Virus record (IMG/VR): IMGVR_UViG_3300009095_000048
Coordinates: 1-30,902 of that record
Origin: a virus
Taxonomy: Duplodnaviria; Caudoviricetes
DNA: 30,902 nt
Direction: 5' to 3' (one strand)
A program made the translations under genes and the position numbers. Positions 395 through 30,798 of this stretch are shown here, piece by piece. The notes beneath the pieces are model-generated. The model saw only the letters and a program-made list of their open reading frames with translations, was not told the DNA's origin and did no database searches. Every line of letters starts with the position of its first letter. Within the stretch, counting starts at the first letter, position 1.

Positions 395-2222
395 TGACGT
401 GATTTCATACCTTTACAGGCATCCTGACCTGGAGGTGGCGATCGACACAGAGACCACCGGACTCGACGTCCACGACGGACGGTCGAAGGTGATCGGCTTC
501 AGCATCTCGTTCCGCACCGAGGAGGGCGAGCTGGTGAAGTGGTACTGGGGCGTCCGGCACAAGGCAGGCAAGGAGCAGAACATCGACGCCGCCACAGCCA
601 AGAAGCTCCGGTGGGTGCTGCAGAAGCAGCGACGACCTCTCATCTTCGCCAACTACCAGTTCGACATCATCGGTCTGCTGAACATGGGGCTGGATCTCCG
701 CGAGAACCCGTTCCACGACGTGCTGACCGTCCAGAACCTCATCAACGAGAACTGGACCATCGGACGCCGAGGGCTCGATGAGCTGGCCGTCTACACCCTG
801 TCGGACGGGCACCGAAAGCTCGCCGTCTGGCCGTGGGAGAACGAGTACCCGCTGAAGAAGGAGAAGACCTCCGGCTGGCCGAACACCACCCCTGAGATGA
901 TGTTCGACTATGCGACGACCGACACCGACCTGACCCTGCTCATTAAGGAGGAGCAGGTCAAGACCCCAGCCTGGAAGTCGCTCCCTGCCGACGTCTGGGA
1001 GACCAAGCAGAAGGTCATCCGTGTGCTCACCGAGATGCGCCGCCGAGGTATCGAAGTCGACCTGGAGCTCGCTGAGCAGCTTCGGGACGAAGGCGAGGCC
1101 CGGAAACAGGAGATCAAGGGCGAGCTGGGCCTGAACCCCAAGAGCAACAAGGACATGCAGGAGCTGCTCATCAACAGGCTGAGATTGCCCGTGCTGAAGA
1201 AGAGCGAGAAGACCGGGGCTCCGTCATTCACCAAGGCTGTGATGGCTGAGTACGAGCCGATGCTGGAGCGAATGGAGAGTCCGGTCGCATCCCTCATCAA
1301 GGAGTACCGAGGCTGGGACACTGCTGTCGGCTTGCTGCTGAACCCGTACCTGACGCTCACGAGCCCAGACGGCAGGCTCCGTACCGAGTACACCACGCAC
1401 GTCACGGCGACTGGTCGGCTGAGTTCGCGGAACCCGAACCTGCAGCAGATCTCGAAGGGGGCTGACCCGAAGCCCTGGAACGATCGCATCAAGAAGTGCT
1501 TCGTGCCGCGAGACGGCTACGTGCTGATCTCGGCGGACTACTCGCAGCTGGAGCTCCGGCTGGCTACAGCGTACAGCCAGGAGCCCGCTCTGCTGGAGAT
1601 CTTCGAGCAGGGCCGGGACATCTTCACGGAGATGACCGAGGCGATCCGGGAGCAGCTCCAGAAGACGAGCCCTAGGCTTGCTGAGAGCTGGACCCGACAG
1701 AGGACGAAGACGTTGGTCTACTCGCTGCAGTACGGCGCAGGCGACGGTCGGATCATGTCGGCGTTCGGAGTCACGAAGAAGGAAGCCCAGCTGCTGAAGT
1801 CTTCGTTCTATCGGTCGTACCCGCGATTCCGGCTCCTGGAGGAGGACATCAAGCAGAAGGTCGAGAAGACCCTCCGGGCAAGGCTCTGGACGGATCGCTA
1901 CCGCCACTTCAAGTACAAGAGCGAGAGCTACAAGGGCATGAACTCAGTCATGCAGGGCGGTGCTGCTGACATCGTCGACAGGGTGATGATCTACGTCATG
2001 GACACGCTGGACAGCGAGGACTGCAGGCTGCTGCTGCAGGTGCATGACGCCCTCGTGTTCGAGGTCCGCGAGGATCTGGCCGAAGAGTACGCTGTAAAGA
2101 TCAAGCAGGCAATGGAGAACGTCAACGGTATCTGCTCGGACGACGGCGAGGAGCTCTTCCCTGTCCGCTTCGCTGTCGAGGTCGAGAGCTGGGACGGCTC
2201 GATCAAGTACGCACATTCGTGA
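369..2222 (+). CDS. polA: Family A DNA polymerase (3'-5' exonuclease + polymerase, no 5'-3' exonuclease)
   Basis: ExoI DTETTG, TGRLSSRNPNLQQI, motif A DYSQLELR, motif B RQRTKTLVYSLQYG, motif C LQVHDAL. Start placed at ATG 369 behind GAAGGAG (ORF track start 354). Confidence 0.97.
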   Translation: MAKRHFTSDDVISYLYRHPDLEVAIDTETTGLDVHDGRSKVIGFSISFRTEEGELVKWYWGVRHKAGKEQNIDAATAKKLRWVLQKQRRPLIFANYQFDIIGLLNMGLDLRENPFHDVLTVQNLINENWTIGRRGLDELAVYTLSDGHRKLAVWPWENEYPLKKEKTSGWPNTTPEMMFDYATTDTDLTLLIKEEQVKTPAWKSLPADVWETKQKVIRVLTEMRRRGIEVDLELAEQLRDEGEARKQEIKGELGLNPKSNKDMQELLINRLRLPVLKKSEKTGAPSFTKAVMAEYEPMLERMESPVASLIKEYRGWDTAVGLLLNPYLTLTSPDGRLRTEYTTHVTATGRLSSRNPNLQQISKGADPKPWNDRIKKCFVPRDGYVLISADYSQLELRLATAYSQEPALLEIFEQGRDIFTEMTEAIREQLQKTSPRLAESWTRQRTKTLVYSLQYGAGDGRIMSAFGVTKKEAQLLKSSFYRSYPRFRLLEEDIKQKVEKTLRARLWTDRYRHFKYKSESYKGMNSVMQGGAADIVDRVMIYVMDTLDSEDCRLLLQVHDALVFEVREDLAEEYAVKIKQAMENVNGICSDDGEELFPVRFAVEVESWDGSIKYAHS

Positions 2223-2240
2223 TACACTCAGGTAACCCAA
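2220..2240 (+). promoter_or_regulatory. Putative extended -10 promoter (TGA-TACACT) followed by a GGTAACCCAA box
   Basis: TGn+TANNNT at 2220-2228 overlaps the polA stop. GGTAACCCAA at 2231-2240 recurs in other control regions. Confidence 0.4.
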
Positions 2241-2264
2241 TCCCCTAGAGAACGGAGAATCATC

Positions 2265-2657
2265 ATGGCTGTAAAGATCTACACCAACCAGAAGCCGAAG
2301 GTCGACACCTACCTCATCCCGCCAGGGGTACGGACACTGGACTACGAAGACTTCGACTGGACCGAGAGGGTCACCATCCCCAGGATCGAGCCTGAGATCC
2401 CTCGCACGGCTACCCGCATCATGCTCGGCAGCGGAGAGGTCATCTTCGTCATCGACAAAGAAGTGGAGGCCGACGAGAAGGGGTTCTCACAGCAGGTCAG
2501 TCAGCTTTTTGCAGACAGCACGGAGAGCTACGCGGAGTGGCTCGCTCAGCGGGCCGAGAGGGAAGGCGTCCCTGACGTCGCTGAGATGGAAGCGCAGTTC
2601 CTGCACTCAAGACAGTGCTACGTGTACACCTGGAAGTGGTGGGAGGTGTCCTGGTGA
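2265..2657 (+). CDS. Hypothetical phage protein (130 aa)
   Basis: GGAG RBS, phage-like codon usage, GTGA overlap with the next gene. Confidence 0.8.
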   Translation: MAVKIYTNQKPKVDTYLIPPGVRTLDYEDFDWTERVTIPRIEPEIPRTATRIMLGSGEVIFVIDKEVEADEKGFSQQVSQLFADSTESYAEWLAQRAEREGVPDVAEMEAQFLHSRQCYVYTWKWWEVSW

Positions 2658-3112
2658 CCCTGCTCGCGATCGACGGCGGTGACAAGAACGTCGGCTACGC
2701 ACTCTTCACCGACGAGGGAGAGGAGATCGAGCGAGGCGTCATCACGTTCGAGAACTTCGAGGAGTGGTTCTGGCTCGGTCTCGACAGGGAGCTGATGTTC
2801 TCGCCGCCGCTCGACGGCCCGATCCATGAGATCACGCAGCTCGTCGTCGAGGGTTACCGGCACGACCCTGGCGTGAAGCAGGGCGGCTCCATCCACGGAG
2901 CCTCGCAGATCGAGGGCGCTGTAAAGATTCTCGGGGCCGTGACCGGCATCCCTGTAACAGTGCAGTACGCAGGCCAAGCCCTCCCTGTCGCCAAGCAGAT
3001 CACCGGTTACACCGGAGACCTCACGAAAACAGGGAACAAGAAGCACCTCCCGGACCAGGACTCGGCCTGGCTGCACGGCATCTACTGGCTGCACTGCAAC
3101 GAGATCATCTGA
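2654..3112 (+). CDS. RuvC/YqgF-like (RNase H fold) Holliday junction resolvase
   Basis: N-terminal LLAIDGGDKNVGYA, central LVVEG and C-terminal DQDSA give the acidic pattern of RuvC-type resolvases. GTG 2654 follows GGAGG. It sits in the replication module. Confidence 0.8.
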   Translation: MTLLAIDGGDKNVGYALFTDEGEEIERGVITFENFEEWFWLGLDRELMFSPPLDGPIHEITQLVVEGYRHDPGVKQGGSIHGASQIEGAVKILGAVTGIPVTVQYAGQALPVAKQITGYTGDLTKTGNKKHLPDQDSAWLHGIYWLHCNEII

Positions 3113-3118
3113 TACGCT

Positions 3119-3205
3119 ATCCCCAAGAGATTCTCCGATCTCTTGGGGGTGAGAAGCCCCCGCCAGGTCCGTCATACGGCACCTCGGGCGGGGGCTTCTT
3201 CTTTG
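3119..3205. terminator. Tandem hairpins / bidirectional intrinsic terminator between convergent operons
   Basis: Stem CCCCAAGAGA/TCTCTTGGGG (3121-3148) and stem AGAAGCCCCCGCC/GGCGGGGGCTTCT (3152-3199) followed by TCTTT, between convergent stops at 3112 and 3232. Confidence 0.8.
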
Positions 3206-3231
3206 TCTCGACTCTCCTCAGAGCGGACGAC

Positions 3232-3873
3232 CTATCCGTGCCACTCCCAGTGCCACGGCTCAAACTGCTTGAAGTTCTTCCCGGTCCATTTGAAGCCCCA
3301 CCGACCGGCGTTGGCCTGGAGCCAGCGGTGCTCGCGAGATCCCGCGTTCTGAATCGCACCGCCGAAGTCGATTGCACGACCGCTCTCATGGAGACTGTGG
3401 CCGGGAGGTGCGGCGAGGTTGCCCTTCCCTGCCTTGTACAGGTTGTAGAGACGCTGCTGCTCGGCTCGGGTGCGCCCGCCTGAGTTGACCTTCAGGCTAT
3501 AGCCGAACTGCTTCTGGAACGCCGCATTCATTGCCTGGAGAGCTCTGTCGGCCCCGGCAACGAGGTTGTACCGGCCCACCAACGGGCCGCCAGCGCCCCC
3601 GCCGCCAGATCGGCCCCCGCCATAGCTGGAGGAGATTTTAGGCTGCTGACGGGCCTGCTGTGCCCGCAGAGCGGATAGGAACATGCTGTGCTGGCGAGAT
3701 GCTCGATCTGAGATGTCGCTGAAGCCCTTCATGTCCGCCGACTCGTTCGGAAGAGAGATCTGCGCGGCCACCGGACGAACACGCTGGTTGGCCCCTGCAG
3801 GTGCTGTAAAGCGCGACAGCTGCTGATTCTGGAACCCACCGACAGAGGCGAGAGGGTTGACGAAGTTTGCCAT
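3232..3873 (-). CDS. Probable virion-associated peptidoglycan peptidase (M15/VanY-like domain with low-complexity N-terminus)
   Basis: SLHESGRAID and EPWH zinc-peptidase motifs. It is the last gene of the internal-virion cluster and is coupled by TGATG to the 1646 aa gene. Confidence 0.8.
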   Translation of the reverse strand: MANFVNPLASVGGFQNQQLSRFTAPAGANQRVRPVAAQISLPNESADMKGFSDISDRASRQHSMFLSALRAQQARQQPKISSSYGGGRSGGGGAGGPLVGRYNLVAGADRALQAMNAAFQKQFGYSLKVNSGGRTRAEQQRLYNLYKAGKGNLAAPPGHSLHESGRAIDFGGAIQNAGSREHRWLQANAGRWGFKWTGKNFKQFEPWHWEWHG

Positions 3874-6800
3874 CAGAATCCATTCCCCTTCTTCTCAGAG
3901 CCTGCCCGGTTCCTCTTCTCGATCTCAGCGTAGTTGATGAAGTTCGGACGGCTCCAGTTCTGGGCGTTGAGGCCCAGGAGCCAGTTGACGACGGACAGAC
4001 CCTGATCGAACTCCGTCTTGTTACCCTTCGCTACCTGAGCCTGCGGATCGAGCCCCTGCCCCTGCAGCACCGAGACGGCGCTTCCGGTGATGCTCTGGCC
4101 GGTGATGTTCGCGAGGTAGTTCACGATCGGCAGGTTCTGGTCGAGGTAGTCGCTCGTGTCATTGATCGGGATGCCGCCGACCTTGCTGCCGGTGGCGAGC
4201 TCAGCAGGCACGCGGATCAGCGGGGACGTCATGCCGAGCACGCCCTGGATCGGGTCCGGGGAGAAGATCTGGCTCAGCATGTCGAACTGAGGCGCGCCAG
4301 GGTTGATGTTGATGTAGTTGCCGTCGATCTGCAGTTGAGGCCCGAACGCACCGTCTGTGACGAAGCTCGGGAAGAGCTGATCCTCCGGGAACGGGTCCGA
4401 CAGGCTGTTGGGGTTGATCCCCATCGACTCAGCCAGCGCATAGGACGCCTTCGGGAGGGCCATGAACCGCCCAGGGTTGCGAGCAGCCGACTCCATAGCG
4501 AACGGCAGGGTCTTTGCGAACCATGTGTAGAACGGGACCAGGAAGCGCCACTTCGCCTCTGTCGGGGTCAGCATCAGGCTGTCGGGGTGAGCCCGCTTCA
4601 CCTCGTTCACGGCACGCTTTACGAGCTCGCTCTTCGAGAGCTTGCCCCAGCGACCGTGCTGAGCCGACTCCTGCTTGAGGATCTGGATGAAGTGCTGCAG
4701 CTTGCCGTGGTGGTCGACGAAGTGCGACACGCCACCGGCAATGCGACCGGCACGGCTGTTCGCGATGTCAGCACCGATCTGGCCGATACGACCGCTGGCC
4801 GACTCCAGCATGAGGTCCTCTGTCGTGGCATAAGAGCTCAGTAGGCCGTGGTCCTGAGCCAGCTTCGAGACCTCATCTGCTGTAAAGGAGTGACGCCCCT
4901 TGACGATGACCTCGCTCGACTTGGGCATCCGCTCACCGATCGCAGTCAGGGATTCGAGAAGGTCGACGCCGTGGTAGTTGTTCTTCATGCCCATCACCCG
5001 GAGAGCGTCCTTGTAGCTCGACAGGTAGTGAGCGTTGCCGCGAGCGATCCAGCTCATGAAGACGTTGCCGAGGTGGTTCCGGACGTGGTGCCCTGCCCGG
5101 AACACGGTGACGAGCTGCTTCCAGATGTTCTGGGTAGGGATGAATGTCTTCTGGAAGAAGTCACCGAGCTCACCCTGGAACTTACGGTCGGTGCGCACCA
5201 TCGCATCGAGGACGTGCAGCTCCTTAGCGACCTCCTTCTGCATGTAGACACCGTCAGGAATGAGGCTCGCGAACGTGGAGCCCCCGCTGTCGGAGACCTT
5301 GACCATTCCAGCCTTGTACTCGCGGCTTACGAGTCCTGCCTTACCCATTTCGTGAAGGAAGTTGCCGACGACAGAGCGGTGCTCTGCGGCGGTCACGAAA
5401 GCATCCGTGATCCTGTAAAGGTCGGTGATCGGGTCTGCGATGTCCCAGTTTCGCCACTGCCCGACAAGGTCGGAGATGTTGTCGAAGTCGTCGCTGAGCT
5501 GGAAGGACGTCTCCTTGCCTGCCTTCTGGCGAAGGATCGCGTTGATGTGCTCGATGTTCGGCTCTGTACGCATCAGCGGGCTGTTCATCAAGCTCTTGGC
5601 AGCAGGATCGAGATCGAAGGTCTTCGACAGCACGGACTGGATGAGATCGGCAGCTGCCGTTACCTCAGCGTTACTGTTCGCCACGCCGCTCTTTACAGCA
5701 GCCATTGCAGCGGTCAGCTGATCCGGAGTGAACTTCTTCATCTGCCGGAGGGTGTCGACGGTCTCCGACAGGATCTGCCCCGACACGGTGCGCTTGGCGT
5801 GGTAGACGCCGTAGAGGTTCTTCATGCCGAAGGACTGATCGAACGTCTTAGAGAGGCCGAAAGCAGCCCCTGCCACGAACCCCTGCTGTGCGGCGTACTC
5901 TTTCACGCCGTAGAGCGGGTCCATGCTCGCGAGATCGTAGAGCTCGATCTCCTGCTCAGCAGCCTTCACCTGAGCAGAGGCGGACTGCTCGCCCTCCTCC
6001 AGGACCTTGACGGGCTCGAAGTCAAGATCGTCGGCCTGCTTGCCGTAGGACTCAGCCTGCTTCGTGGAGTTCTCTGCCACGATCGTCTTGCGCATCTTCG
6101 GGTTGTCAGAGACGGCAGCCATCGACCGGCTGAAGTAGGCAGCTCGCTGCACCTCGAAGCCGCCGACAGCCTGCTTCACAAGCTCCTCGGCTCCCAGCAC
6201 CGAGCTCGGGAATGCGCCGATGTCGGCAGCGTTCTCCTGGAGGTTGGCTCGGAGCTTCGCGAGGGCCTCCACCTGCTCGTCCATCGTGCCAGCGTCGAGC
6301 ACACGACGGATGCGTTCCAGCTGATCCGTCGTGAGGCTCTTGGTCTCCTTCAGACCGCGTGCCGCGTAGGCGGCGCTGTTCTCGGCAGCGCGAGCCGCAA
6401 AGGCATCAGCGCCCTTGACGATCGCCTCTGTCAGAGGGTCCAGGAGACCCTTCGGGCCGGTCGTCACGTAGTAGCCCTTGCTGCTCTTCGTGACCTTCGC
6501 TCCGGGGATGCTTGCGGCCATTGCGTCTGCCGCCTTCTTGGCGTTGGGCAGGAAGAAGGCAGCCTTGCCGGACTTGATCGCGTTGTTCGGAAGGTTCTTG
6601 TCGAGCACCTGTCCTCGGTAGCCAGTGAGCTTCTTGTTCTGCAGGATCTCCCGGACACCGGCCAGCGCCTCGTCTCCGCGTGCACCGGATGTGACAACCC
6701 AGTGAGCGGCCTCCATGAGTCGCGACGGAGCCACGGAGGTGCCGCCGTTGAACAGCGCGGCCAGAGCGGCATTCGAGCTCTCGAAGCTCTTCTCGGTGAT

Positions 6801-8813: not shown

Positions 8814-8830
8814 AAAGGTAATCCTACCGG

Positions 8831-10030: not shown

Positions 10031-10031
10031 A

Positions 10032-11029: not shown

Positions 11030-11043
11030 GCTGGCATCCTACC

Positions 11044-13808: not shown

Positions 13809-13810
13809 GG

Positions 13811-20388: not shown

Positions 20389-20653
20389 CGAGTTCCTCCT
20401 GTAGTCCGTCCAGTTTGCCCTTGTTGTACGCGGCGTTGATCGCCGTGTCGTCCGCGTGACCTCCGATGAGGCCGAACTCACGAGCCATCTCAGCGACCGA
20501 GTCCTTCGACAGGTAGAGCCTGCCGAGGTTCCGCCCCGCCTGGTCGCGAATATCGCGCTGCGTATCGATGAACGGCCCGACGCCGCTGCCTGTGACGTAG
20601 TCCACTCCCGGAGCGAGCTCAGGGGCGGATACGACCTTGAAGTGTGAGGACAT
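20291..20653 (-). CDS. Hypothetical protein (120 aa)
   Basis: ATG 20653 coupled by TGATG to the TerL stop. The 3' end overlaps the next gene by 98 nt. Confidence 0.65.
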   Translation of the reverse strand: MSSHFKVVSAPELAPGVDYVTGSGVGPFIDTQRDIRDQAGRNLGRLYLSKDSVAEMAREFGLIGGHADDTAINAAYNKGKLDGLQEELGGDLYSIADTLRRWLEHVAPAGNSAGGRRKAS

Positions 20654-22245: not shown

Positions 22246-22252
22246 GATTCTC

Positions 22253-22534
22253 CTATGCCGAGCTCTGGTCTACTGCTCCGAGCTTCACCAGGGCCGAGAT
22301 TATTGACGGCAGGATCGATGCGGAGCTGCTTCGAGACCCAGAGATCGTCACCCCCTCCAGGAGGAGGGAGCTGTCGGAGCCGTTGTGCGTGTGATCCCCT
22401 GGAGCCGCCTGCGTCGTGCGAGGTCCGAGGGTGTGATGAATCGACTCCCGTCGAACGTCCGTATCCGCATTCAGGTGAATCTTCTCCACCTGCTCAGCAG
22501 TCAGCTTCGTGAACTCCTCCGGGAGGTCAGCCAT
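22253..22534 (-). CDS. Small putative virion protein (93 aa)
   Basis: HHTLG..QAAPGDHTH motif, like the His-rich repeats of fibre proteins. Confidence 0.55.
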   Translation of the reverse strand: MADLPEEFTKLTAEQVEKIHLNADTDVRRESIHHTLGPRTTQAAPGDHTHNGSDSSLLLEGVTISGSRSSSASILPSIISALVKLGAVDQSSA

Positions 22535-22535
22535 G

Positions 22536-22790
22536 TCAGAGCTTCCGGGGAACGTTCGGAGCGGTGACCGACAGGCCGAAGACGCCTGCCAAGAAGCTCG
22601 TCACGGCCATTGCCGGGGTCGTCCAGAACGACCAATCGAACTCAGGCGCGTTGACGTCGAGAACGATGGCTGCCGGGATGAGGACCAGGGCAGACCCGAG
22701 TACGATGTTCGCCACGAGACGGACCTTCGGGTTCTGTACGACGACATTCGGCGTGTTGTCCACGGCGATCGGCTGGTTGAGAGACATCAT
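22536..22790 (-). CDS. Putative holin (84 aa, two TM segments)
   Basis: ATGA overlap and GGAG RBS. Hydrophobic segments LVANIVLGSALVLIPAAIVL and AMAVTSFLAGVFGLSV. Downstream of the endolysin. Confidence 0.7.
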   Translation of the reverse strand: MMSLNQPIAVDNTPNVVVQNPKVRLVANIVLGSALVLIPAAIVLDVNAPEFDWSFWTTPAMAVTSFLAGVFGLSVTAPNVPRKL

Positions 22791-23245
22791 TTCTCCTTGT
22801 CCATGAGTGCCCTCAGTATACCTGTGGACACCTCTATGTGCTCGCTGAGAGTCTTCTGCTGATTCTCCTGACCGGCTCTCAGGTACTCGACGGCCTCCTT
22901 CAGGAGTCCGATCTCCTTGTAGTCGGCTGAGACCTTCGCCTCGATCCGGTTGTTCTGGTCTCGGAGACTCTTGCCGCTGTTCGGAAACATCTCGTGATGA
23001 ACGACGTCCACCTTCTTGACCATGTCCTGCTGCACGTCTTCGATCCTGCTCAGCCGCTCGAAGAGGCCGGGCCTGGCGGGAGTTCCGGGGCGAGCTTCCT
23101 CCCCGGCCACATCGTTGACGAAGGCCACGAACTTGCGGATCACAGGGAAGACCTTCACGATCAGCCACCCGATGACGGCAAGAATGATCGCCGCGAGGAC
23201 GTAGACCGTAAAGCCTACGTCCTCTAGGGCCGATCCCCCGCCCAT
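22787..23245 (-). CDS. Lysis-cassette membrane protein (152 aa; N-terminal TM + coiled coil)
   Basis: TAATG coupling to the endolysin. TM segment VYVLAAIILAVIGWLIV followed by a coiled coil, an arrangement common next to actinophage lysins. Confidence 0.7.
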   Translation of the reverse strand: MGGGSALEDVGFTVYVLAAIILAVIGWLIVKVFPVIRKFVAFVNDVAGEEARPGTPARPGLFERLSRIEDVQQDMVKKVDVVHHEMFPNSGKSLRDQNNRIEAKVSADYKEIGLLKEAVEYLRAGQENQQKTLSEHIEVSTGILRALMDKEK

Positions 23246-23991
23246 TACTTCAGCTCGCGGCGATTCGCCGCCTCGGCGCGCCGCAAGGCGGAGCGCATGA
23301 CCGGGCCGGGAACGTCGTTGCCGACGTAGCCCCAGCGAGCGCGGAGCCACCGGGCGATGGCCCTCCACATGACCGGGCCGAGCACGTCATTACCCTTGTA
23401 GCCCCAGTTCTGACGCAGGAACTGCGCGAACCCGCCCGCAGACCCGCTGCCCCAGATGTCATCATACGCGCCACGGTAGCCGTAGAGGCGGGCGATCTTC
23501 TGCAGGCCGACAGCGGTGGGGATGCCGAACGGGTTGTGCTTCTTGCCCGGCGTGGCGGGGACCGGAGCGGGTGCCCCGCCCGCGAGCTGGCCGGTGTACT
23601 CGTAATGCCAGCCCTCACGGGGGTTGAAGAAGTGACCGGCAGGGGTGAAACCGAACCTGGGCGCGTTGGCTGCCAGCCAGTTGGAGCGGACGGTGCCGAT
23701 CCGGGTCACCCCGTAGTCCTTCCCGGAATCGCGCAGGTCGAGCGCTCGCGGGCCTCGCGGGCCGGACTCCTCGTGGTTCGACCTTCCCGGAGGGGCGGCG
23801 AGGTTGTAGCCGGGGAGGCGCTTGACCCAGCCGTCATAGAGGCGCTGCTGCTCAGCGCGCGTGCGGGTGCCGCTGGATACGATCAGGTCGAGGCCGAACT
23901 TCTCCTTGAACGCGGCACGCATCTTCTCGAACGCGGCAGCGACGTTCTTCTCGACACGCTGCCCGTTGATCTTCACGTAGCTGTAGGCCAC
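23245..23991 (-). CDS. Endolysin: M15-type zinc peptidase + C-terminal cell-wall-binding repeats (248 aa)
   Basis: GTG 23991 behind AAGGGAG. SNHE..ALD and EGWH motifs, Pro/Ala linker, three GY.G.D..G repeats. Followed by two membrane proteins. Confidence 0.88.
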   Translation of the reverse strand: MAYSYVKINGQRVEKNVAAAFEKMRAAFKEKFGLDLIVSSGTRTRAEQQRLYDGWVKRLPGYNLAAPPGRSNHEESGPRGPRALDLRDSGKDYGVTRIGTVRSNWLAANAPRFGFTPAGHFFNPREGWHYEYTGQLAGGAPAPVPATPGKKHNPFGIPTAVGLQKIARLYGYRGAYDDIWGSGSAGGFAQFLRQNWGYKGNDVLGPVMWRAIARWLRARWGYVGNDVPGPVMRSALRRAEAANRRELK

Positions 23992-24002
23992 GACGTCTCC
24001 CT

Positions 24003-25139
24003 TCACAGAAGAGTGATCCACTGACCACCCTTGTAGGTCTTCACAGGCTTTACAGCCCATGTACCGCCCAAGTATACCTTCCCCGGCTTCTGGACTTCAG
24101 ACCCTCCCAGAATCACTGTCGGATACCCTGTTCGGGTCACGGTGTTGCTCTTAGACGAACTCCAGGTTCCGTCCCCATTGGCGTTTACAGCACGCACCCG
24201 GAAGTACCAGGTGCCGGTGTCGAGAGTCCCTGACGTCCAGGTGAGCACGTTGCCCAGAGTCGCCGTCGTCGAGTCGGAGAAGTCGGAGTTCTTGGACTGC
24301 TGGACCTTGTACCCCGTGATTGCAGACCCGCCGTCGCTGGAGGGGGCCGTCCACGTCAGCTTCACCTGCGTGCTGGACAGCGGCGTGAGCTCAAGGTCGC
24401 CGGGAGCGCCCGGAGTCGATGCCAGGGTCTTCCCGCTGAACGTAGACGACCACGGCCCTGTCGTGCCTGCGTTAGTGGTAACAGCGTTCTTCCCGGCAGC
24501 CCGGAAGTAGTACGTCGTATCGGGGTCAAGACCCGTGACCGTCGTCGTACCATTCGAGCTGACCGTCGTCGCACCAGAGAAGTTGGAGTTCTTGCTGTAC
24601 TGGAGGCTCCAGCCTGTGATGCTAGACCCTCCGTCGCTGTTCCCGCTGAACTTAGCTGTGAGGCTTGTTGCAGTAGCCCCACTGATGCCAATGGGGGTCG
24701 GAGCTGCAGGGGCCTCAGCATAGGTCATTGTTCCCGACAGAGAGGACCCCCACGAAGACGAGCCCGAGGACTGTGTTGAGCCCCCGCCACCGCGCCGGAA
24801 GTTGACGCCCCCGCCACCCCAGTGCACGCCGTAATTTGTGTTGCTTCCTCCACTAGCGTGAACCCCCACTGCCATAGACTTCTTTGAGGGGGTGCTCTGA
24901 GCCCCGTAGCTGGTCGAGCTCCCGCGAGGGTTGTTGCCAAAGTAGGGGCGGATACTCACTGATCCCGATCGACCGGCAACGTACAGATTCAGAGTCTGCA
25001 CCAGGATGTTCTTACTCCCGTTTGCCATCGTTCGGCCAGTTGGGAGCTTCACGTTGCTGTAGATGTAGAACGTGCCTCCAGGGGAGACCCAGCTCGTGGT
25101 GGCCGGGGAGTCCGTCCCCGGAAGCGCGACAGTAGGCAT
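24003..25139 (-). CDS. Virion surface / minor tail protein with two fibronectin type III domains (378 aa)
   Basis: Two FN3 repeats (DGGSSITGW..GLDPDTTYYFRAAGKN; LTWTAPSSDGGSAITGY..WYFRVRAVNANGDGTWS). Confidence 0.8.
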   Translation of the reverse strand: MPTVALPGTDSPATTSWVSPGGTFYIYSNVKLPTGRTMANGSKNILVQTLNLYVAGRSGSVSIRPYFGNNPRGSSTSYGAQSTPSKKSMAVGVHASGGSNTNYGVHWGGGGVNFRRGGGGSTQSSGSSSWGSSLSGTMTYAEAPAAPTPIGISGATATSLTAKFSGNSDGGSSITGWSLQYSKNSNFSGATTVSSNGTTTVTGLDPDTTYYFRAAGKNAVTTNAGTTGPWSSTFSGKTLASTPGAPGDLELTPLSSTQVKLTWTAPSSDGGSAITGYKVQQSKNSDFSDSTTATLGNVLTWTSGTLDTGTWYFRVRAVNANGDGTWSSSKSNTVTRTGYPTVILGGSEVQKPGKVYLGGTWAVKPVKTYKGGQWITLL

Positions 25140-25149
25140 TTACAGCACC

Positions 25150-25458
25150 TCAGTTCGTGTCAATCCACACGTACCCCTCCTGGGGGTTCTCGGGAGGGAT
25201 AGTACCGACGTGAGGGCTCAGCTGTCGCCACTGACCCAGGCTGTCGCTCCAGTAGTAGGTATCGCCCGACACTGAGACGACCTGCCCCGGAAACGGGTCC
25301 CCAGGGAACGTAGACAGCTCTGGGACACCGACGACCTCATCAAGACGCAGGAGACCCTGGTTGATGCGGTCGATGTCGGCCACTTCGTCGTCGCCACCGA
25401 GCCCGAGAGATCCTCCACCGGGGATGTACATCCCCAGTCGGGTCGTGAATGCAGGCAT
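25150..25458 (-). CDS. Putative minor tail/fibre-associated protein (102 aa)
   Basis: TTRLGMYIP..DIDRINQGLLRLD N-terminus and HVGTIPPENPQEGYVWIDT C-terminus, motifs typical of phage fibre proteins. Confidence 0.6.
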   Translation of the reverse strand: MPAFTTRLGMYIPGGGSLGLGGDDEVADIDRINQGLLRLDEVVGVPELSTFPGDPFPGQVVSVSGDTYYWSDSLGQWRQLSPHVGTIPPENPQEGYVWIDTN

Positions 25459-26207
25459 TACGCGATCTCCCCTCTGGTGACGGTACTCATCTGGTTCATC
25501 AGATTGCCCTTTTGCATGGCCTGTTCTACCTCGGCCAGGATAGCATCCTTCTCTTCCTTGGAACTTACGTGCTTGAGCACGGCTTCGACAAGAACGAGCA
25601 CCACCTGACGTGCGTTGTTGATCTCCTGCTGCTGGGGGTTCCAGCGCCCAGTAATCTCCAGAACCTTCTCGATGGCCCTCTGGTCACCGGAGTCGGCATT
25701 CCCGATCAGACGGTTCAGCGCGATCGGCACAGCGTCCATGAGGTTCTGCTCGCTCCGCTTCGACAGGAGCTCCGCGAACAGCGGCTGCCGCATCCAGTTC
25801 TGGTACTTCGGCATCGAGACGCCGATCTGCCTCAGCTTAGTGCTGAGCGCTCGCCGGTCAGTGGGGTCCGACAGGAGCTGGATCGCGACGGCCTGCTCAG
25901 GGCTCACCCCTGTGGCCGGGTCCATCGAGATGCCTCGGATCGCCAGAGCAGCCTTGAGCTCAGGCGTGGCATACGCCTTGGAGTAGGTCTTCTTCGAGAT
26001 CCGGTCCCAGCTCTTGCTGACCTCGTCGACAGAGGGCACGTAGCCGTTGCGGAGGTAGAAGACGTTGATAGCCGCGAGGATGTCCCGGAAGAGGTACGGA
26101 TCGAATCCTGTCGGGACCGGGGACGGCACCACCCGACCGTCAGCGTGAACGACGAGGACGGAGCCGTCGTCGTCCTCGTCGTTCAGGAAGAGTACCTCAT
26201 CAGCCAC
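25458..26207 (-). CDS. HTH DNA-binding protein, candidate terminase small subunit (249 aa)
   Basis: VSPEQAVAIQLL..KLRQIGVSMPKYQNWMRQPLF HTH followed by GDQRAIEKVLEITGRW, an arrangement seen in TerS-like proteins. Confidence 0.55.
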   Translation of the reverse strand: MADEVLFLNDEDDDGSVLVVHADGRVVPSPVPTGFDPYLFRDILAAINVFYLRNGYVPSVDEVSKSWDRISKKTYSKAYATPELKAALAIRGISMDPATGVSPEQAVAIQLLSDPTDRRALSTKLRQIGVSMPKYQNWMRQPLFAELLSKRSEQNLMDAVPIALNRLIGNADSGDQRAIEKVLEITGRWNPQQQEINNARQVVLVLVEAVLKHVSSKEEKDAILAEVEQAMQKGNLMNQMSTVTRGEIA

Positions 26208-26322
26208 GGTTGAAGTGGTCCTTTACAGCGAGCAGACCTGACAGGATCAGCACCAAGACGATGCTGATGACGATGCCTGTGGCATCGGCTCCAAAGTCCG
26301 GCATTCCAGCTGCTTCAAGCAT
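26200..26322 (-). CDS. Small single-TM protein (40 aa), not in ORF track
   Basis: MLEAAGMPDFGADATGIVISIVLVLILSGLLAVKDHFNRG*. Bridges the gap exactly, with 8 nt overlaps to both neighbours. Confidence 0.65.
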   Translation of the reverse strand: MLEAAGMPDFGADATGIVISIVLVLILSGLLAVKDHFNRG

Positions 26323-26848
26323 TTCTACGTCCCCAATCTCTCATTGCTGCGTCCAACTCATCGATGTGTGCGTACCCCATATCCGTCAGGGCCATCATCA
26401 CGGGCATCGGCATCTCGTAGGAGACGCCCTTAGCGTACCGCTCGACAAGCTGATCTGGGGCTGCCAGGAGGGCCGACATGCGGCTCACGCTGCCCACGGC
26501 CTTGACTAGCCGCATGAACGGGTTCAGGGTCTTGTCGTTGACCGGGGCGGGCATCGTCTGTGCCTTGCGGTGCTCGGCCACCCAGACGTCGTAGGCGTCT
26601 GGTACGGAGGTCGCGGAACCGTACTCACCCACGATCTCCGAGTCCAGGTCGATGCCCTTTGCCCGGGCCATGCTGTAAAGGTCGTTGACCACCCTGGCAC
26701 CCATGTGCGAGTGCCTGCCCTGACTCAGCCGGAGAAGGTACGGCTTGCTGTAGCCACCCTCCACCTGGAAGTCGGCACGGGTCATGCCCAGCTTGTTGAT
26801 TGCCCAGTCCAAAGGATTCTTAGAGATCCTGACGACCTTTACGGACAC
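26315..26848 (-). CDS. Putative DNA-binding protein with two XRE-like HTH repeats (177 aa)
   Basis: AGGAG RBS. NPLDWAINKLGMTRADFQVEGGYSKPYLLRLSQGR and NPFMRLVKAVGSVSRMSALLAAPDQLVERYAKG. Confidence 0.6.
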   Translation of the reverse strand: MSVKVVRISKNPLDWAINKLGMTRADFQVEGGYSKPYLLRLSQGRHSHMGARVVNDLYSMARAKGIDLDSEIVGEYGSATSVPDAYDVWVAEHRKAQTMPAPVNDKTLNPFMRLVKAVGSVSRMSALLAAPDQLVERYAKGVSYEMPMPVMMALTDMGYAHIDELDAAMRDWGRRNA

Positions 26849-26851
26849 TGC

Positions 26852-27142
26852 TTACTCCTTGATCTCGTCGGCAGGCACCTCCCGGTAGTGCTGCTCGATG
26901 GCTTCGTTCGTCGCCCCCCGGAAGGCGTTGTCGACCGGATCGTACAGGACCCAGTCGCCCTGCTCCAGGATCTCCATGCCTCCGACAGAGGGGAGGTACA
27001 AACGGTCGGCGGTGGCCGTCACCTTCTGAAAGGACAGCCGGTCCTGAATCCACGCCTGCAGGTCGGCGTTGTCGTTGTCCTGGCCGGTGAACTGCACAGC
27101 CTGCACAGGCCGTACCACCAGCTCGATCGTCTTGATGTCCAT
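26852..27142 (-). CDS. Hypothetical phage protein (96 aa)
   Basis: PVQAVQFTG..GDWVL..F pattern seen in many small phage proteins. TGATG coupling. Confidence 0.75.
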   Translation of the reverse strand: MDIKTIELVVRPVQAVQFTGQDNDNADLQAWIQDRLSFQKVTATADRLYLPSVGGMEILEQGDWVLYDPVDNAFRGATNEAIEQHYREVPADEIKE

Positions 27143-27432
27143 CAGAGGACCCTCTCTTCGTTGGTATTGATGCGTCGGTAGAACCTGCGGAGGGTGACCT
27201 CGCTGGTCATCGTCCGGTACAGATTCGAGTTTAGGCTGTCGGTCGGGGCGAGTACGAAACTGCGGGTGAGATCGTCGTGGTAGACGATCCTCTCGATCCT
27301 GACTAAGCGGGGGTAAGGCTTCCGGTCCGTCTTCTTCTTCTGCTTCTTCGGGAGTCGAACGTCGAGGAAGATGTCCCCGGTGTGCAGCCAGTCCCCTTCT
27401 CGGACGACGTCGCCCAGCAGCTTCTTGTTCAC
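27142..27432 (-). CDS. Hypothetical basic protein (96 aa)
   Basis: GTG 27432 in GTGA overlap with the upstream gene. Confidence 0.7.
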   Translation of the reverse strand: MNKKLLGDVVREGDWLHTGDIFLDVRLPKKQKKKTDRKPYPRLVRIERIVYHDDLTRSFVLAPTDSLNSNLYRTMTSEVTLRRFYRRINTNEERVL

Positions 27433-27785
27433 GTCAGGTCCCCGTGAATCCAGGCGTCCCACCGCTTCGCGGCCTCTGTACTGTCGACCTTCTGCATGAT
27501 CGCCAGACGTGCCTGCACCCGCTCGAAGTTCACGTTCTCGCTTCGGGTGAAGACCTCGAAGCTCGGGGAGCCGGGGCGGTTCATCACCAGGTCACCGACG
27601 CGGACCCGGTTCTGCAGGGCGACGACGTCGACTCCGGGGATGATGCTGTCGGCCCACCGCGACAGGGTGGTGCGATCGGCCTCGGTCGCGAGCTCGAACA
27701 TCGAGACCTCGCCGTTCTCGACAGGGGAGGACTCGTCGATACCCTCATCGGGGTTGATGAATGCGGGGTGCTCGTTGCCGTTCAC
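27429..27785 (-). CDS. Hypothetical protein (118 aa)
   Basis: GTG 27785 in GTGA overlap with the upstream gene. Confidence 0.7.
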   Translation of the reverse strand: MNGNEHPAFINPDEGIDESSPVENGEVSMFELATEADRTTLSRWADSIIPGVDVVALQNRVRVGDLVMNRPGSPSFEVFTRSENVNFERVQARLAIMQKVDSTEAAKRWDAWIHGDLT

Positions 27786-28021
27786 TTGAAGATCGCCTTT
27801 CCGGCCCACATCAGGGCCTCTTCGAGGTGCGTCAGCGCGAGGCTGAGCTCGCGCCCTGAGTCGATCTCCCCAGCCATGAACTTCGCGGCTTCGTAGATCT
27901 TGGCGCGCAGCTTGACCTGGACCAGCTGGCGATCTTCGATGTCGTCCGGGACAGGTGCATCCTGTGCGATGCCGAAGCGATCGTAAATGTCCGGTGCCAA
28001 GCCGCTGTTGTTGAGTGCCAC
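27782..28021 (-). CDS. Acb2/Tad1-like helical hairpin protein, candidate immune-signal sponge (79 aa)
   Basis: C-terminal GRELSLALTHLEEALMWAGKAI matches the RExSLAxTxLEEAxMW signature of the Acb2/Tad1 hairpin family. GTG 28021 behind GGAG. Confidence 0.65.
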   Translation of the reverse strand: MALNNSGLAPDIYDRFGIAQDAPVPDDIEDRQLVQVKLRAKIYEAAKFMAGEIDSGRELSLALTHLEEALMWAGKAIFK

Positions 28022-28034
28022 TGTGTTCTCCAAT

Positions 28035-28087
28035 CAGAAAAGGGACTGTGTCGAGATAAGTATCCCAACACAGTCCCTCTCTGTCAA
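28035..28087 (-). promoter_or_regulatory. SigA-like promoter (TTGACA-17-GATACT) overlapping a terminator hairpin
   Basis: Minus strand TTGACA at 28087-28082, 17 nt spacer, GATACT at 28064-28059. Stem AGGGACTGTGT/ACACAGTCCCT (28041-28078) followed by T residues on the minus strand. Confidence 0.6.
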
Positions 28088-28094
28088 GCCGGAC

Positions 28095-28451
28095 TCAGCT
28101 GGCCTGCTTCTCCAGCTCGTCGAGCACCTTGCGAATGTCGTCGATCGAGGAGGCGGCGAGCTCCAGCGGGGCTGTACCGACCCAGCCGATCATCGAGACC
28201 CGGAGGACCGGAACGGCCACCTGGTTCATGTCGACCGTCGCGGTGACCTGACCGGAGGTAGCCGACAGGACGCCCTTGTCGGAGACGGCCTTGTTGAAGT
28301 CGACCTTCTTGGCCTTCTTCTCAGCGGGCTTCGGCTTCTTCGCTGCAGGCTTCGGCTTCTCAGCAGGGGCCTCTTCCGAAGAAGGGACGTCGAGCGCCTT
28401 CCCCGAAGAGGGAGAGGACGTGGTGTCGTCGAACGGGTTCGTGCTGGTCAT
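28095..28451 (-). CDS. Hypothetical protein with Lys/Pro/Ala-rich segment (118 aa)
   Basis: GGAGG RBS, highly biased codons, possible extended -10 (TGA-TAAGAT at 28499-28491) upstream. Confidence 0.8.
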   Translation of the reverse strand: MTSTNPFDDTTSSPSSGKALDVPSSEEAPAEKPKPAAKKPKPAEKKAKKVDFNKAVSDKGVLSATSGQVTATVDMNQVAVPVLRVSMIGWVGTAPLELAASSIDDIRKVLDELEKQAS

Positions 28452-28496
28452 GGTGACCTCCTAGCTAGGTTGTTGTGTTGCAACGGGGGGATCTTA

Positions 28497-28844
28497 TCAG
28501 TCATGCTCGATATGGTCGGCCACGTCGTGCAGCCATGCGGACACGATCGCCAGGTCATGCTCGGCGTCGAATGGGAGCCCGTTGTGCGGGTCCATCACCA
28601 ACTCCGCGACCTCCCGCACCTTGCTGGCTTGTGCGCGTCGGACCAGCGGCATCAGCCACTCAGCAAGCTGCGGCACATCGAACGATGCGACCGGCCATGC
28701 CGACTCCGATTCGCTCGCGAACAGCGTCATCGTTCCGTCAGGCTCAACCTCCGCCCGCGCGAAGGACGTGTCACTGAACGGGCCGTTCTCGAAATCGGAT
28801 GCTAGGTACTCGCCCAACTTCTGCTGAACCTCTTCGATGTCCAT
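28497..28844 (-). CDS. Hypothetical acidic protein (115 aa)
   Basis: ATG 28844 behind GGAGG, TGATG coupling. Confidence 0.75.
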   Translation of the reverse strand: MDIEEVQQKLGEYLASDFENGPFSDTSFARAEVEPDGTMTLFASESESAWPVASFDVPQLAEWLMPLVRRAQASKVREVAELVMDPHNGLPFDAEHDLAIVSAWLHDVADHIEHD

Positions 28845-28987
28845 CAGTCCTCCACCTTCTCCGGGCGTGCCAGGCATTCACACTGGCCGCATTGCTCACA
28901 GAACTTCTGCCCACGGTCAGGACAGTTCGCCAGGCGATACCGGCCAACCTGCGCGCCACAGGCCATACAGACCCCGTCGGTTGGCAT
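28844..28987 (-). CDS. Cys-rich microprotein (47 aa), possible zinc-binding; not in ORF track
   Basis: MPTDGVCMACGAQVGRYRLANCPDRGQKFCEQCGQCECLARPEKVED*. AAGGAGG RBS and TGATG coupling at both ends. Confidence 0.65.
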   Translation of the reverse strand: MPTDGVCMACGAQVGRYRLANCPDRGQKFCEQCGQCECLARPEKVED

Positions 28988-29019
28988 CAGCCCTCCTTGG
29001 GGTGCTCGGGGATTTTCAT
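28987..29019 (-). CDS. 10-codon leader ORF MKIPEHPKEG
   Basis: AAGGAG RBS 8 nt upstream. Its TGA overlaps the ATG of the next gene. Confidence 0.4.
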   Translation of the reverse strand: MKIPEHPKEG

Positions 29020-29252
29020 TGGGTTACTCCTTCGATCTCGTAGTAGGGATACCTAAGCGTACCACGATAGGGCTGGGAATGTTGGGTTACCGGGGGGTCT
29101 GACGAAACCGGCCTACCGTTGGGATACCAGGCTACTCCGAGAAATCGGCCTACGGACTGGCGAATCAAATGGAGCGCGTGTCGCCAGGTACAAGATGCAT
29201 GATTAGATCTTTACAGATGCCAACCCAGACATCCCTTAGATCGGAGCAACTC
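29020..29252. promoter_or_regulatory. Divergent control region
   Basis: Non-coding gap between divergent gene arms. Contains four GGTA(A/T)CCCAA-like boxes, a GAAA(C/T)CGGCCTAC direct repeat and the first early module. Confidence 0.7.
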
Positions 29253-29633
29253 ATGCACGTTTACACTGCGACCATCGGACGCAACGTCCGCACCTCCACC
29301 TACGACGATCGCGATTTCTACCTGGACGGCCAGCCGGTCAAGGGCTGGGCTCCCATGTCCGATGAGCGCTGGGAGCAGTTCATCGAGGACGTTAAGGCGG
29401 ACATGAACAGGTTTGCGGTCGAGGCCGCCATTCATGTCGACAACGTCGAGATCCACCGAGGCACGGGTTTCTGGGATGGCGTCGAGGAGGAGTCCGCGAA
29501 GATTACGCTTCTCACTACGGGAAAGGCCGATGGCCGCGCACTCAGCGTCCTGCGCCGCTTCCTCAGCGAGCTGGCGCGCCTGTACAGTCAGGACGCGATC
29601 GCCCTGACCATTGGTCAGTCGGAACTCTGCTAA
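29253..29633 (+). CDS. Probable S-adenosylmethionine lyase (SAMase / DUF3574-like), 126 aa
   Basis: N-terminal TIGRNV, W..F helix, GTGFWDGVEEES and LARLYSQDAIAL match the G-x-[YW]-x-G-x-x-E and Q-[DE]-x-hh motifs of phage SAM lyases. First early gene, GGAG RBS. Confidence 0.65.
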   Translation: MHVYTATIGRNVRTSTYDDRDFYLDGQPVKGWAPMSDERWEQFIEDVKADMNRFAVEAAIHVDNVEIHRGTGFWDGVEEESAKITLLTTGKADGRALSVLRRFLSELARLYSQDAIALTIGQSELC

Positions 29634-29641
29634 GGCGAGAG

Positions 29642-29665
29642 GGGCCGGACCTTCGGGTCCGGTCC
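29642..29665 (+). terminator. cUUCGg tetraloop hairpin after the SAMase-like gene
   Basis: GGGCCGGACC-TTCG-GGTCCGGTCC, with no U-tract. Confidence 0.6.
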
Positions 29666-29775
29666 ACCGCCGCATGGAGGAATCAAATGGACTCTGCGCA
29701 CACCTTCGTGACACCTGCGTACTGTTCTTTACAGACATCAACCGATGTCAACCCCTAGAGCTCAAGGAGAGCACC

Positions 29776-30171
29776 ATGAATGTCCCGAACCACTCCCAGG
29801 CAAGCCGTATCCGATTCGACATCCAGAAACTGCAGAACGGCCAGGGCGACACCCTCCAGCACTGGCAGGGCAACTCATACAAGGGCATTCCGGTCACCAT
29901 CTACGTCGATGGCGAAAAGGTCGGCCACGGCATCCAGCTCAAGCACTGGGACACGACGATTGCGGTCATCACGATGGTCGGACCCATCTACTTCGATGCC
30001 CGGTACATCAGCTCGACCACGCGCGGCTTCCAGGGCCGGATCATCAACGCCCTGCGCACGGCCTTCGGCGAAAACTACGCATCCGTTGTCCGGATCGCGG
30101 AAGAGCTGGCCCTGCCGACAGGGGAGCGCGAGGTGCTTGACTGGCGCGCAGAGGGTACGTCAGTCCGCTGA
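29776..30171 (+). CDS. Early hypothetical phage protein (131 aa)
   Basis: ATG 29776 behind AAGGAG. HWDTTIA..YISSTTRGFQ resembles the Y.T.IA / S.TT..HQ pattern of small early phage proteins. Confidence 0.8.
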   Translation: MNVPNHSQASRIRFDIQKLQNGQGDTLQHWQGNSYKGIPVTIYVDGEKVGHGIQLKHWDTTIAVITMVGPIYFDARYISSTTRGFQGRIINALRTAFGENYASVVRIAEELALPTGEREVLDWRAEGTSVR

Positions 30172-30180
30172 CTGATCCAG

Positions 30181-30210
30181 GGCCGGGTTCCGCTACGGCG
30201 GGACTCGGTC
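30181..30210 (+). terminator. cUACGg tetraloop hairpin after the 131 aa gene
   Basis: GGCCGGGTTCCGC-TACG-GCGGGACTCGGTC (stem with G-U pairs), with no U-tract. Confidence 0.6.
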
Positions 30211-30336
30211 TCCAGTCGCGTGGAAGGAATCAAGTGGAGCGCACACCTCGTGGCACCGATCTGTGATTGAGTTCTTTACAGCACGAACCCGCCGCATCCT
30301 CCGCTGAGGCTCTGCAAGGGCAGGACATGCTACAGC

Positions 30337-30390
30337 TTGACAGGTATCCCAATACGTGCTTAGATCTTTACAGCACGGACCCCTTTACAG
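30337..30390 (+). promoter_or_regulatory. Putative SigA-like promoter carrying both genome motifs
   Basis: TTGACA 30337-30342, GGTATCCCAA 30343-30352 in the spacer, imperfect -10 near 30360-30366, CTTTACAGCACG twice (30366, 30383). Confidence 0.55.
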
Positions 30391-30408
30391 CACGACAGGA
30401 GAGTCATC

Positions 30409-30651
30409 ATGGCAAGCATCGGATATGCCGTTGACATCATCGCGGACGGCGAGCAGGTCAGGAACGCCGACTTCGGCCCCTGGGAGGAGCACGAGGCCAC
30501 CGGTGCCTACTACGAGTACGTCGCCGCGACGCGGCAGATCGCCGTGATCGACCCCTCCGACGACCTGGAGCGCACCGTGCGACTCATTGCGGACGGGGAG
30601 GTCATCCACGAGGCGACGATCCGCTGGGGGGACATCCTGGCCGAGATTTGA
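30409..30651 (+). CDS. Early acidic hypothetical protein (80 aa)
   Basis: AGGAG RBS, phage-like codon usage. Confidence 0.8.
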   Translation: MASIGYAVDIIADGEQVRNADFGPWEEHEATGAYYEYVAATRQIAVIDPSDDLERTVRLIADGEVIHEATIRWGDILAEI

Positions 30652-30798
30652 CCTTTACAGCTTGGCACCCGTGTCGGGATCGTAGAGCGCGATCTTGCCA
30701 TCCTTCCGGACAGCGATGACTTCTATGATCTCGGCACCCCATCGCTCAGCCTTCACAGTTAGAGCTTTACGGACACGGTATCGGCGCTGATAGCTAGC

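Follow-up and report, generated by a model that had tools for sequence, protein, structure and literature searches.

Occurrence of the octamer CTTTACAG in the window

The 30,902-nucleotide stretch of virus DNA analysed here (IMG/VR record IMGVR_UViG_3300009095_000048; hereafter the window) is the whole 30.9-kb contig of a podovirus-type phage with a GC content of 61.5%. It carries genes for an SU10-like capsid, adaptor and portal, a terminase, DNA polymerase I and two M15 peptidases. The octamer CTTTACAG, the subject of this study, was found in the window as 29 exact copies, 17 on the plus and 12 on the minus strand, the first starting at position 411 and the last at 30653. Copies occurred at a density of approximately 1 per kb and in either direction, both within genes and just upstream of early genes. 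Relatives having genomes of ~45 kb, the window represents a partial genome, from which about 14 kb is absent.

An order-3 Markov model predicted 1.29 copies of CTTTACAG for the window. According to the gene calls used here, 20 of the 29 copies were located in genes, ten in sense and ten in antisense orientation, and the copy at 13755 would become a 21st if the adaptor gene starts earlier. When codons were shuffled synonymously (1000 runs), the mean in-gene count was 2.44 and its maximum 6; since two in-gene copies are fixed by gene overlaps in this procedure, the free expectation was ~0.4. In-gene copies were read as AVK or PVK, LYR or LYS, and xFT. Seven of 22 in-gene placements (sites in overlaps counted twice) lay within the first 75 nt of a gene, as compared to 6.9% expected, and six of the nine intergenic copies were situated in the early region (29209-30653).

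A preliminary description of this DNA, made from the sequence alone, had reported the same 29 copies, the same strand distribution and the same mixed readings (AVK, LY[S/R], FT) in both orientations, all of which the recount reproduced, and had proposed the codon shuffle, in which the 20 observed in-gene copies exceeded every run. Its statement that most copies lie in coding sequence also stands, with its number of 22 reduced to 20 or possibly 21. Its GC content of ~64% and its ~0.4 expected copies are replaced by the measured 61.5% and by the Markov expectation, respectively.

The copies are listed below; G001, G003 and Shocker are relatives in which exact placements were found, and run X2 yielded a close strain.

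411..418, plus strand: CTTTACAG in DNA polymerase I, codon 20, sense
2092..2099, minus strand: CTTTACAG in DNA polymerase I, antisense (AVK); exact in G001
2269..2276, minus strand: CTTTACAG in codons 2-4 of gene 2265-2657, antisense
2919..2926, minus strand: CTTTACAG, antisense, in the gene homologous to Shocker gp40 (an annotated resolvase); exact in G001
3804..3811, minus strand: CTTTACAG in an M15 peptidase gene, codon 21, sense
4880..4887, minus strand: CTTTACAG in the gene for a 1646-aa protein, sense; exact in G001
5413..5420, minus strand: CTTTACAG in the 1646-aa gene, sense
5691..5698, plus strand: CTTTACAG in the 1646-aa gene, antisense
7283..7290, minus strand: CTTTACAG in the 1646-aa gene, sense; exact in G001
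8268..8275, plus strand: CTTTACAG in the 1646-aa gene, antisense; exact in G001
10788..10795, plus strand: CTTTACAG in codon 8 of gene 10032-10817, antisense
12266..12273, minus strand: CTTTACAG in virion gene 11044-13167, sense; exact in G001 and G003
13014..13021, minus strand: CTTTACAG within virion gene 11044-13167, sense; exact in G001, G003 and also in Shocker, which shares no other site with the window
13755..13762, plus strand: CTTTACAG just upstream of the adaptor gene or within its start
17472..17479, plus strand: CTTTACAG, intergenic, upstream of gene 16533-17405
17955..17962, plus strand: CTTTACAG in the portal gene, antisense; removed by a synonymous change in the close strain (run X2)
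19885..19892, minus strand: CTTTACAG in the portal gene, sense; exact in G001
20373..20380, minus strand: CTTTACAG in a gene overlap, sense; exact in G001
21019..21026, plus strand: CTTTACAG in the terminase large subunit gene, antisense; exact in G001
22234..22241, plus strand: CTTTACAG in codons 2-4 of the gene encoding the terminase large subunit, antisense; exact in G001
24048..24055, plus strand: CTTTACAG in the overlap of the fn3 tail and endolysin genes, antisense
26221..26228, plus strand: CTTTACAG, intergenic, just upstream of the gene for a terminase small subunit (terS)-like protein
26673..26680, minus strand: CTTTACAG inside the tandem helix-turn-helix (HTH) gene, sense
29209..29216, plus strand: CTTTACAG 36 bp downstream of the first early element
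29727..29734, plus strand: CTTTACAG 36 bp downstream of the second early element
30274..30281, plus strand: CTTTACAG 36 bp downstream of the third early element
30366 and 30383 (30366..30390), plus strand: pair of CTTTACAG copies 17 bp apart, after TTGACA and before gene 30409; a 17-bp pair is also present in Shocker
30653..30660, plus strand: CTTTACAG directly after the stop of gene 30409-30651

Conservation and turnover of CTTTACAG and its slot at early genes

Judged by its capsid, the window phage is nearest, among named phages, to Microbacterium phage Shocker (62% identity), a cultured phage that grows on Microbacterium paraoxydans, then to Cellulosimicrobium phage DS1 and to Jasminevirus phages of Arthrobacter. 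All of its endolysin matches (260/260) were from Microbacterium phages, which makes Microbacterium the likely host genus. The family comprised 118 loci of at least 7 kb, 66 of which were left after removal of duplicates and were used for the enrichment count. CTTTACAG was enriched in nine of these 66. Copy numbers in relatives were 45 in Shocker, 31 in G001, 28 in G006, 26 in G007, 16 in L238, 9 in G003, 7 in L237 and 6 in G002, and additional short family loci were also positive. In a quick version of the capsid tree, carriers formed two clades, that of the window and that of Shocker, with three negative loci between them.

In Shocker, 26 copies were inside genes (16 sense, 10 antisense), 13 were intergenic and 6 extended over gene ends. 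Of the window's alignable in-gene placements, 12 of 21 were exact in G001 and 1 of 13 in Shocker, while 8 of 22 Shocker placements were exact in G006. The two lineages thus hold CTTTACAG at equal density and at mostly different positions. Where the amino acid was conserved, motif codons were retained more often than codons elsewhere, both between the window and G001 (20/30 versus 87/300, P 6e-5) and between Shocker and G006 (14/23 versus 65/193, P 0.02), with P values that are optimistic because codons within one site are not independent. These comparisons, of a kind that the preliminary description had suggested, support its proposal that selection would act on the DNA of CTTTACAG and not on the protein.

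The conserved element GAATCAARTGG precedes early genes across the family and is present in the window at three positions:

29162..29172, plus strand: early-gene element GAATCAARTGG, copy 1; possibly a genome end, to judge from Shocker
29680..29690, plus strand: early-gene element GAATCAARTGG, copy 2
30227..30237, plus strand: early-gene element GAATCAARTGG, copy 3

In five positive genomes, CTTTACAG followed 10 of 11 such elements within 60 bp (9 of 10 without the duplicate in the Shocker terminal repeat). Its distance was 15-36 bp and its orientation variable; ~6% would be expected from density. All three elements in the window were followed by the octamer. Same-orientation clusters of CTTTACAG with a spacing of 15-25 bp occurred in the window, G001, G007 and Shocker, and early-region copies were sense in the first three and antisense in Shocker. 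At one promoter-like site of Shocker (TTGACA, 16 bp, TAGGAT), inspection by eye placed the start of CTTTACAG 2 bp after the -10 box. Each early gene resembles a cassette with its own element. A role of CTTTACAG itself as a -35 box (TTTACA) was rejected: three sites inspected by eye had no -10 box at the proper distance, and the sigma-70 scan returned none.

Other lineages carried other words in the same slot. The complete genome G005 (L132-L134) contained a single copy of CTTTACAG and 43 dispersed copies of TACCYCA; TACCTCA stood behind two of its three early elements, and three TACCYCA copies surrounded a TTGACA-17-TACACT promoter. TTGAC-N8-GTCAA was present in 18 copies in G013, 9 in G015, 5 in G022 and 5 in L292, and the slot held TTGACA-N6-TGTCAA or a one-off variant at two of three elements in G013 and at both elements in G015. 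The 24 palindrome sites of G013 (at most one mismatch) were evenly spaced (coefficient of variation 0.57, P 0.002; P 0.07 in G015). In G013 (L313-L315) and G015, TTGACA-N6-TGTCAA recurred approximately every 1.8-2 kb, in genes as well as behind early elements, and it was also found in G022 (L141) and L292. This word is a clean dimer-operator version of the CTTTACAG layout and, being palindromic, points to a reader of duplex DNA. Most family lineages with GC contents near 50% had no dispersed word of this kind. The Shocker clade additionally carries TACCCTA, mainly found at promoters and at junctions between genes. This word resembles the TACCYCA of G005; an arrangement with two readers or two domains is possible in this clade. 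A possible counterpart in the window is the following feature:

29019..29127, minus strand: four GTAWCCCWA copies in a divergent control region, possibly corresponding to the TACCCTA arrays of Shocker

Several further features of the window and its relatives were recorded. The 1646-aa protein encoded at 3873-8813 had no Pfam or NCBIfam match, adjoins an M15 peptidase and is likely an internal virion protein that is ejected. An Acb2/Tad1-hairpin protein (27782-28033; PF24729, E 1e-13), likely an anti-defence sponge, is common to the window, G001, Shocker, G007 and L238 and is skipped in the contigs of runs X2 and X4. An unannotated HNH-like protein with an invariant TGRKRAA block (L006 38681-39448 and homologues) is conserved from Shocker to Jasminevirus. 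In G014 (1-180 and 43921-44460), an in-frame 24-bp tandem array of ~31 units was found, and its repeated word was therefore set aside as a dispersed word. The helicase gene of G006 (33790-36171) exceeds the length of those of relatives and, by eye, contains an intein-like insertion. A scan of a genome collection returned one contig with a member of the family, L292; it is assigned to a Planctomycetota metagenome-assembled genome, in which it is probably mis-binned.

Candidate readers and competing explanations

Outside the early region, CTTTACAG was evenly spaced when both strands were pooled (combined P 3.7e-4, six genomes), a result obtained with related genomes and with an exclusion of the early region that was chosen after the clusters had been seen; over whole sequences, pooled evenness was weak (P 0.17, 0.04, 0.15, 0.53, 0.53 and 0.05). 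Spacing within each strand gave no extra signal (P 0.63, strand-label shuffling; sites are fewer, and power is lower, than for the second dispersed word described below). Spacing statistics with close sites merged were biased and were not used. Because CTTTACAG is even when pooled and not strand by strand, its reader probably recognizes double-stranded DNA.

CTTTACAG is over-represented, retained at synonymous positions, subject to turnover, fixed in a slot at early genes, free in orientation and substituted by other words elsewhere in the family. The explanation that we favour, with confidence slightly below an even chance, is that it serves a double-stranded-DNA-binding protein of the phage as a lineage-specific operator. 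The most likely such protein is the tandem XRE-HTH protein encoded at 26315-26848, which would shut early promoters and also sit genome-wide. We infer that a phage protein made after the early phase would bind CTTTACAG in duplex DNA, close the early promoters where the octamer clusters and occupy the remaining genome at about one site per kb, where in-gene copies might, independently of their orientation, damp or organise the replicated genome late in infection. That some protein encoded by the phage binds the duplex and acts at early promoters, whatever its identity, appears fairly probable; less than half of that confidence belongs to the 177-aa protein as the specific reader. Candidate readers are the following:

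26315..26848, minus strand: 177-aa protein with two XRE-like HTH domains, candidate reader of CTTTACAG
25458..26207, minus strand: terS-like protein, alternative candidate reader of CTTTACAG

The structure model of the 177-aa protein was all-helical with two helical halves (pLDDT 93). Its best matches in a fold search were mostly XRE/cI-type HTH proteins (top match 3trb, Z 6.4, root-mean-square deviation 3.2, 74 aligned positions). The search listed XRE-type HTH proteins and not a stoperator repressor, while an unlisted family could still match, and Foldseek returned no match for the model at E ≤ 0.001. Several homologues have been named XRE regulators by JGI. The protein shared 36-39% identity with homologues of the Shocker clade versus 28% with those of G005 and G024, the reverse of the capsid, and its gene tree joined the two CTTTACAG-carrying lineages with a support of 0.81. 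Only 3 of 13 gene trees did so, the others being those of the adaptor (0.77) and terS (0.64). The product of 25458-26207, which the preliminary description had taken for an HTH protein, matched terminase small subunit families instead. A winged-HTH gene (Shocker gp57) was set aside as reader: among complete family genomes it is missing only from DS1 and ctEqG8, and its copy in G007 is without the HTH part despite 26 sites in that genome.

Besides the qualifications of the spacing test, several observations weigh against the operator explanation. Chief among these for an ordinary repressor operator is the absence of weak variants: one-mismatch versions of CTTTACAG numbered 14 against 29 exact copies in the window and 6 against 45 in Shocker, so that the octamer is without a halo of weak sites and in this respect closer to the site of an enzyme than to the usual operator of a repressor. 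The sigma-70 scan called no promoter at the three early elements of the window, and the absent ~14 kb includes most of the early and replication genes. For the 177-aa protein, Z-scores near 6 denote a common fold only. The grouping of carriers in its tree is weak (0.81, one of three possible topologies) and recurs in the trees of terS and adaptor. A search of 21 records found the gene in 18, the majority of which had no dispersed word, and no gene confined to CTTTACAG carriers was found among the genomes compared. Recognition helices differed between the window and Shocker lineages and did not map cleanly onto the words. Finally, a close strain had lost at least one site (17955) through a synonymous change (40 of ~1,800 difference rows).

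An extension of the operator explanation, which we consider unlikely though conceivable, is a genome-marking system with swappable words (CTTTACAG, TACCYCA and TTGACA-N6-TGTCAA). One phage protein would gate early promoters and also label phage DNA at intervals of 1-2 kb, setting it apart from host or competitor DNA for protection from nucleases, organisation or selection for packaging.

A second dispersed word was relevant to a further explanation:

8..394, plus strand: primase-helicase, C-terminal end, likely reader of CNACAG
798..30398: CGACAG, 87 copies, likely primase start site and a separate system

Of the CGACAG copies, 86 were in genes, versus 28 in the codon shuffle. The word is family-wide at 2-3 per kb, as CGACAG in the window and most relatives, CCACAG in Jasminevirus and CTACAG in ctEqG8, and was evenly spaced per strand (combined P 1.8e-5, 19 genomes, strand-label shuffling), as we would expect of a single-strand primase site. 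The family primase-helicase showed DxD/H/D motifs like those of archaeo-eukaryotic primases (AEPs) and weak RepB_primase/Prim-Pol hits; it had no PDB sequence match, and a single-sequence fold (pLDDT 38) was not used. In view of this primase and of the different spacing of the two words, CNACAG is likely a primase start site and CTTTACAG a duplex site belonging to a separate system.

It is improbable, in our estimate, that CTTTACAG is instead a second, stricter start site of the same primase-helicase. Consistent with such a role, both words end in ACAG and favour a pyrimidine directly in front of the word, and the clusters of equally oriented copies close to the genome end might represent an origin. 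According to the available part of PMC8718748, a single AEP, the NrS-1 PrimPol, uses a short and a long site, GTG and TTTGGTTA; these sites are the best analogue for CNACAG, whereas CTTTACAG does not have the per-strand spacing expected of a single-strand start site, within the lower power noted above. Moreover, CTTTACAG did not fill same-strand CNACAG gaps beyond opposite-strand gaps (quantiles 0.56 versus 0.56, n=184), and the words in the same slot of other lineages are unrelated or palindromic.

Reading of CTTTACAG by the packaging or DNA-entry machinery, with a terS-like or ejected protein marking the genome end and gripping DNA at intervals, is about equally doubtful. The right genome end of Shocker lies at TCAA|ATGG within a variant of the early element (L006 position 484), with a copy of CTTTACAG 37 bp inward, and its 484-bp terminal repeat holds four copies. 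The terS tree joined the two carrier lineages, and orientation-free even spacing would suit a ratchet. However, internal early elements carry CTTTACAG too, and dispersed words are absent from relatives that share these packaging genes; support for this explanation is weak.

Slightly less probable still is that CTTTACAG mimics a host signal (Chi-like, or the site of a host regulator or methyltransferase) exploited by this clade alone. An exact, all-or-none octamer is Chi-like, copies cluster near the genome end, and the genomes compared had no carrier-specific gene. Against this, CTTTACAG had 0 copies in 11 of 11 unrelated Microbacterium phages (535 kb), including Tyrumbra on the host strain of Shocker, and 1 copy in 320 kb from three Microbacteriaceae plasmids; the opposite early-region orientations in Shocker and in the window, G001 and G007 would also be poorly tolerated by a directional Chi. 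Because of its absence from these 11 phages, a general host signal is less likely, and the earlier proposal of a reader from phage or host is thereby narrowed, while its binding to duplex DNA agrees with the orientation-free spacing. A doublet scan of viral contigs, covering 4 of 64 parts, returned at least 118 loci, and the nine with at least four copies or more than 55% GC had no match to proteins of the window family. Two unrelated viral contigs, L088 and L077, likewise without such a match, contained local CTGTAAAG clusters (8 in 3.2 kb; a 20-bp tandem).

We give a low probability to the idea that an enzyme of the phage nicks or modifies virion DNA at CTTTACAG. Exact copies without weak variants would fit such an enzyme, and the family as a whole conserves an HNH-like protein (Shocker gp52). 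This gene, however, is also present in genomes without CTTTACAG, no methyltransferase is annotated in the complete Shocker genome, the known nicks of T5 and phiKMV are on one strand, and nicking or modification would leave the promoter-side slot unexplained. A compositional or protein-driven artefact, which the dispensability and turnover of single sites might suggest, is refuted by the Markov expectation, the codon shuffle, the retention of rare codons and the independent positions in two lineages, and we give it almost no weight.

Relation to described repeats and significance

Chi, the nick sites of T5 and phiKMV, the C1 operators of P1 and the conserved inverted repeats of phiC31 are short or dispersed words with a dedicated reader. 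Chi and the nick sites are strand-specific, and the P1 and phiC31 operators are longer and derive from temperate phages.

The closest counterparts of CTTTACAG in print, as far as the available text of the sources extends, are the repeats of Cluster O mycobacteriophages, which are closest in layout, and the stoperators of L5. According to the accessible parts of PMC4351075, Cluster O phages, which are not obviously temperate, carry 17-bp repeats TGTTCGGNNNCCGAACA in more than 30 near-invariant copies, about one third in coding regions, denser at one end and without orientation to transcription, and with unknown function. Like these repeats, CTTTACAG is near-invariant, genome-wide, orientation-free and partly in genes. 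It differs in being an asymmetric octamer, mostly in genes, of a podovirus rather than a 17-bp palindrome of siphoviruses, and in having a fixed slot behind an early element and a word that is swapped across one podovirus family. The Cluster O dyad TGTTCGGNNNCCGAACA was not among the dyads of the window. A system of this kind being already published, the term 'undescribed' in the preliminary description could not be maintained.

The available portions of PMC9283540 and PMC6550527 describe Cluster A stoperators (L5, TipsytheTRex) as more than 20 asymmetric sites at early promoters and genome-wide, with a lineage-specific consensus, read by a monomeric repressor with two DNA-binding domains. They are 13 bp long, lie in short intergenic spaces, are oriented with transcription and serve lysogeny. 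CTTTACAG is similarly asymmetric, with more than 20 sites (29), and linked to all three early elements of the window. In contrast, it is 8 bp long, lies in genes in 20 of 29 cases and has an orientation that is not tied to transcription (sense/antisense 10/10 in the window and 16/10 in Shocker), in agreement with the earlier view that it departs from the stoperator pattern. No integrase is annotated in the complete Shocker genome.

As far as the consulted text of PMC7302621 goes, Microbacterium phages of clusters EC, EF, EG and EI have 5-12 copies of 13-30 bp repeats that are intergenic and mostly associated with gene starts; like CTTTACAG, these are conserved repeated words of lytic phages with unknown function. 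Shocker is not mentioned in that text, nor is a motif mentioned in the passages of PMC5513430 on Jasmine. Neither CTTTACAG nor CTGTAAAG was found as a whole word together with 'phage' in literature that mostly did not cover subscription journals and excluded supplements, and nothing related was found there on Shocker or on overrepresented primase words.

CTTTACAG is real, and is a variant of a known, unexplained kind of dispersed repeat. Since the description of Cluster O, such repeats in non-temperate actinophages have been without an assigned function. CTTTACAG is short and exact and is present in 45 copies in the cultured phage Shocker. Comparison within the family separates it from a family-wide word that behaves like a primase start site, and the family offers three natural specificity variants together with a short list of candidate readers, which makes binding and recoding tests simple. 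If true, the genome-marking system would give a function to the dispersed repeats of lytic actinophages.

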